NCBI RefSeq assembly: GCF_036321535.1 | Contig: NC_087436.1 | Location: forward strand, 42,348,001 to 42,412,000 | Length of the DNA: 64,000 nt | Direction of reading: 5' to 3' | Origin: Camelus dromedarius | Taxonomy: Eukaryota | Shown here: positions 6,078 to 63,625 of the stretch, in pieces | Position numbering within the stretch: position 1 is the stretch's first letter | How the letters are laid out: each line of letters starts with the position of its first letter | The notes under the pieces: model-generated | Told to the model about the DNA's origin: nothing | The model's database searches: none | The model's input: the letters and a program-made list of their open reading frames with translations, nothing else | Position numbers and translations under genes: made by a program

Positions 6078-7090
6078 CCCCTCTGCGCTACCCAGCCACA
6101 CAGCCTTGATCTGGGGTTCCCATCGTAATTTAAGGGAAATTTTCACAATGTCCAGAGTCCTTGATGTTCTGCAAGTGAGGGAGGAAGACGTTCGCAAATT
6201 CCTTGCAGCAGGAACCCACTTAGGTGGCACCAAACGTGACCTCCAAATGGAACAGTACATCTGCCAAAAAAAAAAGAAGAAGAAGAAGCAGTGGCATCTA
6301 TATCATAAATCTGAAGAGGACCTGGAAGAAGCTTAGATTTTGTTGGCAGTTTGTGCCACTGAAAACTCAGCTGATACCAGTGTCACATCCTCCAGGAATA
6401 CTGGCTGTTGAGCTGTGCTGAAGTTTGCTGTTGCCACTGGAGTCATTCCTGTTGCTGGCCACTTAACTCCTGAAATCTTCACCAACCAGACTCAGGCAGC
6501 TTTCTGGGAGCCACGATTTCTGGTGGTTACTGATCCCAGGGCTGACCACCGCCTCTCACAGAGGCATCTTACGTTAAATGCCTACAATCTCTCAGTACAA
6601 CACAGACTCTCCTCTTCATTATGTGGATGTTGCCACCCCCAGCAATCACAAGGGAGCTGATGTGGTGGATGCTGGCCCAGGAGGTTCTGCACACGCGTGG
6701 CACCATCTCCTATGAACACGCATGGGACCATGCCTCATCTCTACTTCTTCAGAATTCCTAACGAGCTTGAAAAGGAAGATCAGGCTGCTGCTTAAGAGGA
6801 TGTGACCGAGGAGGAATTTCGGGATGGGTGGACTGCTCCAGCTCCCAAGTTTACTGCTACTCAACTCCAGGTCACAGGCTGGTCTGAAGGTTGGCAGGCG
6901 CCCTCGGTGCCTATCCAGCAGCCCCCTTCTGAAGAATGGAGCGCTCAGCCGGCCACTGGAAGACTAGTCTGCAGCTCCCACTGCTCGGGCCACTGAATGA
7001 GTAAGAACAGCACTGAGTGATCTTAAGGTGTTCTACAGTCTCTTAAACAGAAAATGGAAATAAGGATGATGGAAAATAAACAGTTAAAAA
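6078..7090 (+). pseudogene. RPSA: Full-length processed pseudogene of RPSA (40S ribosomal protein SA / laminin receptor 1)
   Basis: 5'UTR ..gggaaattttcacaATG (ATG at 6148). Peptides [94 protein letters not shown] across shifted frames. No introns; frameshifts and small deletions. Stop at about 7024-7026, AATAAA 7075-7080, short A tail. Confidence 0.97.
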
Positions 7091-7745: not shown

Positions 7746-8107
7746 TACTTTCATGGTAAAGGGTATACTTGAAGACCACAGACCCCACAGACCCCAAACA
7801 TGTTAGCCTGTATTCCTGTCATGTCTTCCCACTTCCCTTCCCTCCCACACAACCAACCCGGGTTACAGAATCAACACAACACACTCAGTGTGAAGGCTGT
7901 TGCAAAAAGGACAGATACCCTGGCTGCATAATAGTTCTTCATTATCTGGGTCCACAACCCTCTTCAAAATGCAACTTCAGAGAAGAGATACACAATGTCA
8001 ACCAGATAAGCCACATGCCAAATCTATCTAGGTGATTAACAGGTGACAGATTTTGGAGTTAGATTTCCCTCATATTCAACTGAAGCAGTTATATTTAAGA
8101 ATAGCAA

Positions 8108-9827
8108 TTTTTTTGCTGTTCAAATGAAAGTATTTATTTTTATAATTGTTTTCTTCAGTCAGTTCATCTCTAAGTGCACTTAAGAGACAGAACAAAGACC
8201 CTTATTTAATCTTGTACCAAGTTTAAAAGAATAACCAGTAGCTTCCATTTCTTGTTTTAGATGTTATTACTATTAACTTATATTCTCTTGGTATAAAAAT
8301 ATTTTTTAAAAGAATCCCAAACTAACACATAAACGAGCAACAAGCCTATCAACATATACTTATAAACACAAATGTAGCTAGTACATACATGTTAGGTAAA
8401 ACAGGAATGGTATTTCTGGGTGGTTTAATCATGAATGGCATTAGGTATTGCAAGAAAAGAAGTTTCCAGAGTGTGATCAATCTTTGTTTTTAGCACAGGG
8501 TAACTTTTCATTTCATGGTACATATATTACTATATTAAAAAAAAAAAAAACAACCTGGTTTACTTGATTAAAACCAGGGAAGAATGACCGTGTTTGTGAG
8601 GAGCAATAACTTACAAAAAGCTCCTTGGGGGCGATGCGCTGACCGCCTGGGGGGTGGGGTCCAATTTCAAAGTCTGACCCATAAGGCATAGGGACAAGCT
8701 GTCAAATTTTTAACTCTGTAGATGTATCTTGAATTCACACAAAATGGTAAAAATGTGTATTCTCCTGTCTGTGTTTAATGTGCTCTAACGATGATCAATT
8801 TGGGGGAGAAGTGCTCCTTCCAAACCACAAGTAGGATCGTTTCCAAATTTAAAGAAATGGTCATCCTTTTCTGTGCCTTCAGGTGTGGAACCAGAAAGTA
8901 TTTTCCTCTCTTGTTGGTGCAGCTTCTTGGCCTCCTGTTACTTCTGCTGTCCCTCTTTTTTTTTTTTTTTTTTTTCGCTTCAAGTTTCAAACAATCTTCA
9001 AAGGTTTTATTCATCAACTTCTGCTATGTGGCAGAATCCTTGAAGCCTCCGAGTTCTTCTCCAGCTTTGATCGCCTGAAACTGGGGCTTGAGGACCATCT
9101 GCAGGTTCTCCTTGAGTCGTTCCTGCTGCTTCACTTTTTTCCTCCTGGAGAATTTTGCACTGTTTCCAGACCCCTTCAACTCAGTATTTTTCAACATCTG
9201 AACTGAAAAATTTCTGCACTACTTGGTTGTCCCTCCAGTTTTTTCTCTTCTCCTTTTTCATGAAATTCTCATTGCTCTAAGAATTTTAGTTTCTTCTTTT
9301 TTCACTAATTTCGAAACCAATGAATTCAAAAGCCTCAATTCTTCATTCTCTTTGTCTACTTAAAAGTCAGGGTTCTCAAACATAACTTTAAAACAATCAC
9401 TGGTGAGAAAGAATATTAGGAAGGCTCCTAACTTTCTTCTTCCATGTAGGTTTTTGCTTCTCTTCCTCTTCCTCAATTAAAGTGCTAGTAGCACTGTTAA
9501 CTTTTGTCAGTTTCTTGAATTGGACTCTGTGCACGTGTTTCTTCTGTCGTTTGTCATATCTTATCTTTCCTATATACTTCAAAAGCAAATTGATTTACCA
9601 TGAATATCATGAGTTTTATGATAGATAGAGTCTTTTATCCGTGAAAAATCCATGCCTATATGCACAGAGAAAAAGTGATCCAGAAAGACAAGTGAGCCCT
9701 AAATTTTCAAGGGCTTTCTTGGTAACAAGTTTGTAATCATTATAAGCTCTGCTTTCTGTATCCTTCCCCAATTCTTCTGTCAGGATGTCTAAGAAGGAAC
9801 ACATTACCCGGGAGCAGAACCCAAAGC
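8108..9827 (-). pseudogene. NOL10: Processed pseudogene of NOL10 (C-terminal half plus 3'UTR)
   Basis: Minus-strand peptides CSFLDILTEEL..YNDYKLVTKKALENLGLT..AYRHGFF, LIEEEEEKQKPTWKKKVRSLPNIL, DCFKVMFENPDF*VDKENEELRLLN (NUC153 region), MNKTFEDCLKLEAK match recalled NOL10. Intronless, with stops and frameshifts. Stop at 8849-8851, AATAAA at 8133-8138, poly(A) remnant at 8108-8114. Confidence 0.95.
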
Positions 9828-9982
9828 TGGATTACTGGTTTGTTACAAAGGAATACAATTCAGGAACAGCCAGATGGAAGAGAGGCATAGGTTGAGGTAA
9901 GGGGAAAGGGCGTGGAGCTTCCATGCCCTCTCATCCAGCACCCCTTTCCCTGAATCTCCATGTTCGCCAACCCAGAAGCTCT
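9828..9982 (-). mobile_element. MER21-type LTR segment fused to the 5' end of the NOL10 retrocopy
   Basis: attactggtttgttacaaaggaatacaattcaggaacagccagatggaagagaggcatagg..gcgtggagcttccatgccctctc..ccaacccagaagctct closely matches recalled MER21; LTR sense is co-directional with NOL10. Confidence 0.88.
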
Positions 9983-10850
9983 AAGGATAGTGTATTTTTG
10001 TGAAACAAAACATGAAACATAGATGTCATACATAAAAGAATACTTACGGGCAAGTGAAACAGCATATTTTAAATTGGAGTTGCCCCTGGTAACCTGGGAC
10101 AAATGATTGGCTTAGAGGCATCTTCAGAAAGTGGTGGAAAAATTGCTTTTCTTCTTATGCTCATTACCACTCCCAGGCTTTCAGAGACAATGAGAAAAAT
10201 CAGGGTAAGCAATTCTTAAGAATTTGAGGACATCATGCCAAAAAATCAACAATAAAGTACTTCTTAAAAGTAGCAAATGTATCAACATTTTCATAATGAA
10301 ACCATAGAACTAAAAAAGGATGTGACTTTTAAAATGCATTCCATATGCTAGGTACCTTCTTATACACTAACTTCTTGAAGCCTATATATCCATTCCACAG
10401 GATATATATATATAGAAAAGGGTTTAGTCTAACTACTTTAGCAGAAATACTAAAGGAAATTAAATACCTCCTATAATCTCGAGGAGAGCTGGAGGAGAAC
10501 CAGACTTGAACACTGCACTGACAGGAATAGTACAGGAAGGAAAAATTCCCAAATAGACCTTAGATATGAAAATTATTCTGAGAAGTTAAAAAACATAAAG
10601 GAAATTATTACTAATGGCATCATGAGAAACTGTAAGTACATTAGAAAACATACTCAATATCTTCTCTCAACTTTGATATGATCTTCATATGATTAACCTT
10701 CATCTAATTTCATGGCCATTGTAGGTACTCGAAAGCAGCATGTGTCCATCACATTCAATTACATTAACTTTAATTCTAGTGATGTGAAAAGTAAACTTTA
10801 CAGACTACAAGACACTCAGCAAAGTGATTTAGTTATCAGTTGATAGGCTA

Positions 10851-11273: not shown

Positions 11274-12484
11274 AGGTAAATATAATTTTTTAATGTAGGG
11301 TCAAATTTAGGCATTACTACATTTAAAGAGAAAATCCCTAAGATTAAGGTTGAATTAATTTTGCTTCCAGATATCATCCTAGTAATTTACTTCTCCCAGC
11401 AAGAAAGACCTTACACAGAAAAAGTATATTCCACAGGGGCCTCAGTCTAGTAAAAGAGAGTGTGTAGGATGTATATTACTTTTATATAATATCTAAACAC
11501 CTTTTAGAGAATTTCCTAAATCGTAATTTTTAAAATCAGAATCAGTTTCAGATACAAATACAAATAAAATTGAATATAGAATTCGGAAGTCATGATAATT
11601 AGCATAAATTTGCTTTAAAACAATGGTAAAATTTCTATGAACTAAATCTTAATATTACTGCTGGGCATAATCAAATATAAGCCAATTTTTTTTTCTCCTA
11701 AAACATTAACCCTCAGATAAAAGGATATAGTTACTTGATATCCAAGGTCTTAAAATTCTACTTATTGCTGTTCCTCTCTCAATTTACTAAATTTTGACTA
11801 ATCAAATACTGTTTGCAGACATTAGTCTTAAACCATGTATGTCAATACTAGTGTTAAAGGAGTAACTGAATAAATTGGTGAGAAAACAAGAAAAAACTTC
11901 ATACACATTTCTTCATTACTCTCACTGACGTGACATCATAATTAAAAGTTTTTGATTTTAAACAAGATTTCTAAAGTTTACTTAAAAAGCAAAGCAGAAA
12001 GTGTGGTTATGTTGGGGAGATTATAAACACATGTACATAGGATAATATAAAATAATGTTTAATGTTTTGTGATTGTATATTCTCAGGATAAATTTTCCAG
12101 TGAGAATAACATATATTGATCCAAAATGTGTTCTGTCTCAAAAAATGTGGACCAACAAAATTTTGTTCTGTCAACAAAAAGGATTCAACAAGTAACTCTG
12201 ATGGTGATGAGACTACTTTTGTAAGATACATATGAAGATGTTGAATAAAATATTTTTAAGAAATGTGAAAAGGTATATTTCTATATTAATAAGGTAATTA
12301 TATAAGTGATTTTGAATATATTTTATAACTTATTTAATAAATTAGATATTTAAAATTACTGTTATAATTGTATATTTCTAATTAAATATTAATATGATAT
12401 TGTTATTTTCGGTAATATGGTATAGTTAGTAAAAAACCCACAAACCTTTTGGATCTTGGGAAGATGGGAGATGGCTTTTTTTCA

Positions 12485-12675
12485 ATGTGTGTCTGCTGCC
12501 AGGAGCTAGTTTACCAGCCTGTGACAACAGATTGCCTCCACAATGTCTGTAAAGATTGCTTACAGCGCGCCTTTAAGGCCCAAGTGTTCTCCTGCCCTGC
12601 TTGCTGGCATGATCTTGGCCAGAATTACATCATGACTCCCAGTGAGATTCTGCAGAGTTTACTTTACCTTTTCTT
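12485..12675 (+). pseudogene. UHRF2: Processed fragment of UHRF2 encoding the C-terminal C3HC4 RING finger
   Basis: [63 protein letters not shown] is near-identical to the recalled UHRF2 C-terminus. It ends before the native ..FPGYSKGR stop; no UTR or poly(A). Confidence 0.92.
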
Positions 12676-13124
12676 AATTCTCCCAGAATAGCATTTAGTG
12701 GGACTATCAAAGTTGTATCAGAAGTTTAAACCCATGTCCTCTCCAGGAGAACATGGCAGAAATATGATAATACAATGATTCTCTTGGAGCCTATCTGCAA
12801 AAATTTAATTTTGACCCCTTCAGGCAAGCTCAGTCCAATATTTTGATTTAAAAGACTAGTCTTTTTTTAAAAAGTGCTATGTTTTTGGACGATTAGATCT
12901 AAAAATGTTATAAAAATTGAATATATTTGTAAAATTTTTTGGTTTCTACTCCCACTTCTGATCTCTTTTCCTGCGTAACCAATTCTTATGCCAAACTAGT
13001 TATCCCCAGCTAACCCCTTGTTTCTTCACATCTGTGGAAGATGTTATCATATATGCCTGGCAAATATGCCCTAGACCTTTGCTCTCTGAAGCACGGTCTA
13101 TGGTCACATATGGCTCACAGAAGA

Positions 13125-17778: not shown

Positions 17779-17865
17779 AAAGAAAGAAAAAAGAAAGAGA
17801 GAAAGAAAGAAAGGAAGGAAGGAAGGAAGGAAGGAAGGAAGGAAGGAAGGAAGGAAGGAAGAAAG

Positions 17866-17936
<71 letters not shown>

Positions 17937-17980
17937 AAAGAAAAGAAAAGAAAAGAAAAGAAAAGAAAAGAAAAGAAAGA
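17779..17980 (+). repeat. Compound microsatellite (GGAA)n-(GAAA)n-(GAAAA)n, 202-bp pure purine tract
   Basis: Directly visible; no pyrimidine on the + strand between 17779 and 17980. Confidence 0.98.
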
Positions 17981-62639: not shown

Positions 62640-63625
62640 TCAAAATTCCTTAAAGAGATGAAAATGTTAAGAACAAAAAACAAAAAGAAATTCTAGAGAT
62701 CAAAAACATTGTAACAAAAATGAAGAATCCTTTGAGGGGCTTATTAATAGGCTGAACACAGCTGAGGAAAGAATTTCTGACCTTCAGGATAAGTCAGCAG
62801 ACAATTCCAAAACAGAAAAGCAAAGAGAAAAAGGGCTGAAAAAAAAAATGGAACAGAACATCCAAGAACTGTGGAACAAATACAAAAGGTGTAACATATG
62901 CATAATGGGAATACCAGAAGGAGAAGAAAGAGAAAAGAAATATTTGAAGCAATAATGGCTGAGAATTTCCCCAAATAGTCAGATACCAAATCACAGATCC
63001 AGGAAATTCAGAACACTAAGCAGGATAAATAGCAAACAAAAAAATAAACAAAAAATTGCAAGTAGACATATCATAGTCAAACTGCAGAGATCAAAGATAA
63101 AAAAATCTTGAAAGAGCCAGAGGGCAAAAACATATTCCCTAGAGGATCAAAGATAAATATTACATCCAACTTCTCCTCAGAAACCATGCAAACAAGAAGA
63201 GAGTGGAGTGAAATATTTAAAACGTTGAGAGAAAAACTCACTAACCTAGAATTCTGTATGCTGTGAAATATTCTTCAAAACTGAAGGTGAAATAAAGATC
63301 TTCTCAGACAAGCTAAAATTGAGAGAACTTGTTGCCAGTAAACCTCCCTTGCAAGAAATGTTAAAAGAAATTCTTCAGAGAGAAGGAAAGTAATGTAGGT
63401 CAAAAACTCGGAATTATGTAAAGAAAGAGCATTGCGGAAGTAATAAGTGAAGGTAAAATAAAAACTTATTTTTCTTATTGATTCAACACCTAAAAGTTTG
63501 TCTCAAATATTAATAGCAACAATGTATTTGATTATGTATGCTTATATGTGGCTTATGTGTGCTTATGAATAAGTGAAACAAATGACAGCAATGTCACAAG
63601 GGACTAGAGAGAGGAATTATAATAA
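62640..63625 (+). mobile_element. L1MC/L1MD-like ORF1 region
   Basis: gaaattctagagatcaaaaaca..aaatgaagaat..ctgaggaaagaat..catccaagaactgtgg..acttctcctcagaaaccatgcaa..aacctagaattctgtat. Confidence 0.88.

Follow-up and report, generated by a model that had tools for sequence, protein, structure and literature searches.

The NOL10 retrocopy described here raises the question of how a piece of a long terminal repeat (LTR) came to stand, like a first exon, in front of the spliced exons of a gene that at present carries no such LTR. The window, i.e., the whole stretch of 64,000 nt of Camelus dromedarius DNA that was analysed, contains on the minus strand at 9999-8096 an L1-type processed pseudogene in which NOL10 exons 14-21 follow a 155-nt LTR-like leader, and L1 is presumably the enzyme behind its insertion. 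The parts of the insert, from its 5' end, are the following.

9982-9999, minus strand: degenerate 5' copy of the target site duplication (TSD), matching 8096-8112 at 14 of 18 columns
9828-9982, minus strand: 155-nt LTR-derived leader, a predicted exon, with 77-86% identity to genomic copies
9839-9844, minus strand: poly(A) hexamer of the LTR in the variant form AACAAA, placed by comparison of the copies
9699-9827, minus strand: NOL10 exon 14, from amino acid 343 (VLGPAPRW) onwards; parent at C15:57413178-57413304
8950-9698, minus strand: NOL10 exons 15-20, intronless and frameshifted, by alignment to the parent
8115-8949, minus strand: NOL10 exon 21, last codons and 3'UTR, by alignment to C15:57439512-57440324
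8096-8114, minus strand: vestigial A tail (8114-8108) and 3' copy of the TSD (8112-8096)

This is the arrangement given in the initial annotation, namely, an LTR piece and NOL10 with one degenerate TSD outside both, and the sequence reads as described there. The parent introns were removed precisely and exons 14-21 are contiguous in the insert. The AATAAA and the A tail that had been reported at the 3' end are both present, with two corrections: the signal lies at 8138-8133, NOL10 homology stopping 18 nt beyond it at 8115, and the tail consists of 7 A only, of which 5 are also counted in the TSD. The TSD is 17-18 nt long and encloses both the LTR piece and the NOL10 part, the last A of its 5' copy being shared with the LTR piece as its first base; an equal score is reached by 6 of the 502 sites in the window that start with A5. 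The 5' boundary is likely rather than certain, because in one of 25 LTR copies the upstream sequence fits the 5' duplicate just as closely (score 10 vs 9), the median copy scoring about -1. The site motif of the L1 endonuclease is TT/AAAA, and the flank of this old insertion site reads AC/AAAAA at 10001-9995. The position inside the TSD is the evidence that the LTR piece was copied along with the RNA, as had been proposed. The LTR as a landing site or as a later insertion is excluded by this position together with the flanks in the window, which hold no further U3 or U5 part, LTR matches being confined to 9827-10003; an LTR was found at the 5' side of the mRNA copy and not on both sides.

The parent is a single intact gene of 21 exons, G000:C15:57354622-57440326(+), with an intact coding sequence and 674 of 688 amino acids identical to P0066; no second NOL10 copy was found in the genome by DNA and protein searches, save one match with E=0.066. 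In aligned columns the insert is 79-88% identical to the parent in exons 14-20 and 76% in exon 21, the BLAST identity of the latter being 69%. Its coding part contains 16 indels, 15 of them frame-shifting, the exon 14 part has a 2-nt insertion near 9805, and an internal A23 run (8978-8956) replaces about half of exon 20. The distance to the parent is 0.154 at non-degenerate sites versus 0.19-0.22 at 4-fold sites, where changes on the branch of the parent are counted as well. The insert is a dead non-coding pseudogene that decayed neutrally, with no open frame under purifying selection. The A23 run (8956-8978) has grown from A-rich codons of exon 20, and about 50 nt of the exon are gone beside it. 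In the alignment, the proximal 3'UTR of the parent (G000:C15:57439620-57440326) looks more GC-rich than that of the retrocopy (8850-8115), in which an older, AT-rich state may have been preserved.

About 1 kb off, on the opposite strand (6146-7040, plus), lies another decayed processed pseudogene, which contains an internal A-rich run; its translation looks like RPSA/40S SA, an assignment that Pfam did not confirm. The decayed RING-finger fragment at 12416-12700 on the plus strand (Pfam zf-C3HC4_2, E=1.3e-06), which presumably resembles the C-terminus of UHRF1/2, probably represents a third retrocopy within these 7 kb, truncated at its 5' end. The window also includes a long AAAG microsatellite of 49 copies (17779-17980) and an L1 ORF1 fragment (62671-63007).

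The leader belongs to a family which we take to be MER21, presumably of ERV1 type rather than MaLR. The genome-wide search with the leader as query gave 1171 first-look candidates, 40 of which were scored, and the 25 best-scoring copies, a set biased toward the query, were used for comparison. The fuller copies share a span of about 750-830 nt, many begin with TGT, and TATA-like and AATAAA motifs follow within them in that order. The 5' end of the leader falls 27-29 nt downstream of the TATA-like motif in 16 of the 25 copies, the distance at which a start site is expected in TATA-driven transcription. GT follows exactly at the junction position in 20/25 copies, extended to GTAAGT in 13 of these, and a further copy has it displaced by 1 nt. 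When the 19-38 GT sites of a copy are ranked by a simple count of matches to the consensus, this donor comes first, alone or tied, in 16/25 copies. The hexamer reads AATAAA in 15/25 copies and AACAA(A/G) in 5. On this comparison both start site and donor are predicted to lie inside the LTR, the RNA was probably LTR-initiated, and the anatomy looks like a full-length RNA whose first exon came from an LTR; thus the promotion of the RNA by the LTR, as suggested initially, is probable, and the claim that the LTR consensus runs on as GTAAGT where the match stops agrees with the copies. MER21C is 938 nt long (PMC12129452), and MER21 is listed in the HEPSI rows of Repbase (PMC5753468).

An AACAAA subfamily was unsupported: U3+U5 distances averaged 0.252 inside the group of 5 AACAA copies and 0.245 inside a group of 13 other copies, against 0.251 from one group to the other, and the excess of AACAA among the top matches may reflect selection by the query. 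Tracing the source through identity was impossible with K of 0.216 between insert and copies versus 0.222 between copies and a best match of 82%. Two copies (L016 and L028) are broken right at the predicted start site, and a third (L020) has a deletion at the donor.

On the NOL10 side the junction is likewise exact: the NOL10 part opens at base 9827 with the very first nucleotide of exon 14, which in the parent follows ...ctgcag, and the proposal that the junction lies at a donor and an exon boundary proved correct. Splicing of the LTR donor to the start of exon 14 would account for it. The other part of the initial proposal, a MER21 LTR in sense orientation in the NOL10 intron upstream of the VLGPAPRW exon, failed in this genome. 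BLAST and nhmmer searches with the insert and the copies revealed no LTR in intron 13 (the longest of the gene, 31,850 of 82,934 nt of total intron length, 38%), in the remaining NOL10 gene, or in 31.6 kb upstream, and when the whole elements of 13 of the 25 copies were searched against the 120 kb of gene and upstream sequence, the sole matches were two short ones in antisense (22 and 38 nt; E=0.038), both upstream of the gene. As a sensitivity control, pieces of 60, 80, and 120 nt taken from five further copies were planted, and the search detected 30 of 30. NOL10 isoforms with an LTR-derived N-terminus were absent among the 120 listed of 1263 proteins.

The age of the event bears directly on this absence. 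The K2P distance of the retrocopy to its parent is 0.154 (487 non-degenerate sites at residues conserved across five other mammals), and LTR copies differ from each other outside the matched part by 0.29-0.30 (14 of the 25 copies, 91 pairs), or about 0.145 each; to judge from these distances, the retrocopy formed about when the LTR family spread. Such matching ages, about 0.15 each, make a young and unfixed source plausible. In protein search with the open stretch of the retrocopy both of two candidates were contig ORFs, P0121 and P0122 (clusters of 4 and 6 members), which possess the same junction, 14-15 of 20 LTR-derived residues, the identical frameshift of 2 nt, and the variant hexamer AACAAA (VTN), which is accordingly old. 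Among 58 NOL10 residues 5 changes are common to the window copy, P0121, and P0122, 7 are found in the window copy only and 4 in P0121/P0122 only, while 5 further sites are unlike the parent in all three with no agreement among them. The same junction and frameshift in these ORFs indicate that the insertion predates a deep lineage split and that decay had already begun. Profile and library-wide searches yielded P0131 as the only further copy of the retrocopy, and the DNA of orthologous copies was not found in two scans of metagenome_contigs. The Boreoeutherian-wide distribution of MER21C given in PMC12129452 would fit this insertion age. The old age of the copy leaves room for later loss of the source LTR, and with an event of such age it is plausible that the source was deleted in one lineage or was an allele that never became fixed. 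Two other ORFs (P0138 and P0218) resemble independent decayed NOL10 retrocopies of other organisms, without the diagnostic residues of the window copy, and the database protein P0005, with a GyrB-like N-terminus (PF02518) fused to NOL10 at a short shared motif, is probably an assembly chimera.

The leader contains 4 ATGs, all out of frame with ORFs of 18-33 codons, and no in-frame ATG; among 11 LTR copies, none has an in-frame ATG from which the frame stays open as far as the junction. Two further upstream ATGs lie in exon 14, and in-frame translation could begin no earlier than M399, for a product of 290 aa (399-688) that retains NUC153 (482-508) but lacks the beta-propeller (1-364) as well as most of the second domain (369-417). 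A protein product of the truncated isoform initially proposed is doubtful because of the upstream ATGs before M399, and would be at best weakly translated. Such poor translation makes an aberrant or non-coding transcript more likely than a selected isoform. The NOL10 WD40 region is described as sufficient for AATF/NGDN binding (PMC5175352), and since a truncated NOL10 would lack it, loss of the source allele may be explained by a deleterious effect. The words of the insert occur all in 14 DNA or unclassed runs of the 24 listed and at fractions of 0.07-0.43 in six RNA or possible-RNA runs, and give no evidence either way on expression.

The best reading of these data, to which about an even chance is given, is cis-splicing from an intronic LTR that was since lost or never fixed. 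A young copy of the LTR family would have lain within NOL10 intron 13, in the same orientation as the gene, where transcription would have begun about 28 nt downstream of its TATA-like box, and its donor, 11 nt past the weakened poly(A) hexamer, would have been joined to the acceptor of exon 14, producing a full-length polyadenylated RNA of LTR leader and exons 14-21. This RNA would then have been copied by L1 machinery into the site in a germ-line or early-embryo cell, with neutral decay after; it is heritability that points to expression in germ line or embryo. The source LTR would never have become fixed or would have been deleted later, at least in this lineage. The three exact ends, the 38% share of intron 13, the matching ages, and the TSD around both parts speak for this reading, and LTRs that carry start site and donor as first exons are established for ERVL/MaLR (PMC5538554); the GPR1-AS first exon is overlapped by a MER21C (PMC12129452). 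Against it are the lack of any LTR trace in 120 kb, the NOL10-like C at -2 of the junction, the fact that of all junctions in the gene that between exons 13 and 14 comes closest to the LTR, and the genome-wide depletion of sense intronic LTRs (PMC5538554). Between a lost cis allele and trans-splicing the data themselves do not decide.

Trans-splicing, the rival that survives best, is rather unlikely. Here a short RNA of a solo LTR located elsewhere in the genome, capped and with a strong donor and no nearby acceptor, would have been joined to the exon-14 acceptor and then retroposed. This accounts for all exact ends and for the LTR absence from NOL10 with no loss needed; the LTR family was abundant and coeval, and the acceptor closes the longest, 32-kb intron, as in a spliced-leader-like reaction. 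There is also a mirror precedent in PMC11838501, where 15/17 human mRNA/LINE-1 chimeric insertions have no L1 in the gene, 6 chimeras end at donors, and long introns are enriched; its authors propose trans-splicing and allow for a lost ancestral variant, thus conceding that an unfixed cis allele leaves an identical fossil. However, trans-splicing in mammals is rare and debated (PMC13690279), a rare RNA is an unlikely retroposition template, and the C at -2 is left unexplained. Cis is favoured over trans since a cis promoter yields far more RNA and the family was young. Taken further, as a doubtful possibility only, the insert would document natural trans-splicing in the germ line of an ancient mammal, where short capped RNAs of an abundant LTR family, each ending in a free splice donor, would have served as spliced leaders for acceptors downstream of long introns.

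Microhomology template switch is improbable: the L1 reverse transcriptase on a normal NOL10 mRNA would have jumped at the exon 13/14 junction to an LTR RNA and continued to the 5' end of the latter, in which case, with the same low probability, no LTR-driven isoform ever existed. The initial annotation had named this alternative from the likeness of the NOL10 upstream codons to the LTR end, and both the likeness and the alternative are real: exon 13 ends ATTCCA/GTAAGT, closely resembling the LTR donor. The exon-13 donor context (G000:C15:57381318-57381339) agrees with that of the LTR at 9.6 of 12 positions on average, with 9.5 for junction 19/20, and junction 13/14 is the most LTR-like of 20 NOL10 junctions, nearly tied with two others. 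The base at -2 in the insert is C as in NOL10 exon 13, with T in 22/25 copies and C in 1, and a crossover at -4/-3 requires no mutation; T>C changes on the retrocopy branch number 9/97, and in the P0121/P0122 ORFs the -2 base occupies the third position of its codon. A switch also dispenses with any LTR in the gene. On the other side, the homology is limited to 2 exact plus 5/6 nt, with about 1,600 equally good pairs per copy. Equal-microhomology pairs of mRNA and LTR whose donor is in register with any exon start number 14/17,886, or 14/46,852 for longer LTR RNA, 11 of the 14 being at exon 14 (from 11 of the 25 copies used), and the fraction of compatible pairs in register with any exon start is 0.0002-0.0008. 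The landing of a switch at this junction is thus put at about 0.0002-0.0006 versus about 0.02 for splicing, an author's estimate from about 0.5 for donor use, 0.38 for intron share, and 0.1 for T>C. Splicing would then be preferred about 30-80-fold, a rough estimate in which both figures are post hoc, and for this reason the switch, though judged less likely than splicing, is still kept as a minor candidate.

A two-step origin is quite improbable. In it, the retroposed RNA would have come from an LTR-driven intermediate that is now lost, either a previous NOL10 retrocopy or a partial genomic duplicate of intron 13-exon 21, possibly joined at the shared donor-like motif. LTR recycling of pseudogenes is common in mouse (78/842 loci, PMC5538554), the exon-13 and LTR donor contexts agree, and the changes common with P0121/P0122 could stem from a decayed intermediate, but the genome contains no second NOL10 copy, so that a loss is needed here too, and the cryptic CAG acceptor in a processed copy is 1 nt off and requires an extra insertion.

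In either of the two leading readings, cis-splicing from a lost LTR or trans-splicing, the insert keeps a transcript that the present genome cannot make, with three exact ends, and an LTR family is shown supplying an exon from start to donor about the time of its spread. Retrocopies with an LTR leader but an LTR-less parent would lead either to purged alleles of essential genes or to real trans-splicing, which is an open question in mammals and to which the insert gives a testable link: if it occurred, the same 155-nt leader is expected on retrocopies of unrelated LTR-less genes, and a genomic record would be free of the reverse transcription artefacts that cloud RNA-seq claims. No paper that combines NOL10 with an LTR or a retrocopy was found among the matches listed, in a search outside of which most subscription journals lay.

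Several known systems are comparable. L1-made processed pseudogenes, some of which record lost splice forms, are alike in intronless exons, poly(A) signal, A tail, TSD, and neutral decay; in the insert, however, the 5' end is a putative repeat-derived first exon and not a truncation, and the present parent cannot supply it. LTR first exons, as reported for MT/ORR1/MLT in oocytes (PMC5538554), MER21C at GPR1-AS (PMC12129452), and MER21A at CYP19A1 (PMC4419796, PMC13690279), are alike in that one LTR holds both start and donor, the latter close to the poly(A) signal and joined by splicing to a host exon further downstream, but the known cases are living transcripts with the LTR in cis, whereas the insert is a DNA fossil only. 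The mRNA/LINE-1 5' chimeras (PMC11838501), attributed to trans-splicing or lost cis alleles, share a retroposed chimera, an end at a donor, a source absent in cis, and a long intron; the insert has the mirror layout, in which the mobile element would be the first exon, the host provides acceptor and body, and no L1 sequence is present. Retrocopies made by template switch of LTR retrotransposons (PMC5131818, PMC5470649) likewise fuse an LTR to a partial mRNA copy, but they are flanked by LTRs on both sides, while the insert has an LTR at its 5' side only, an A tail, and a TSD of the length given above.
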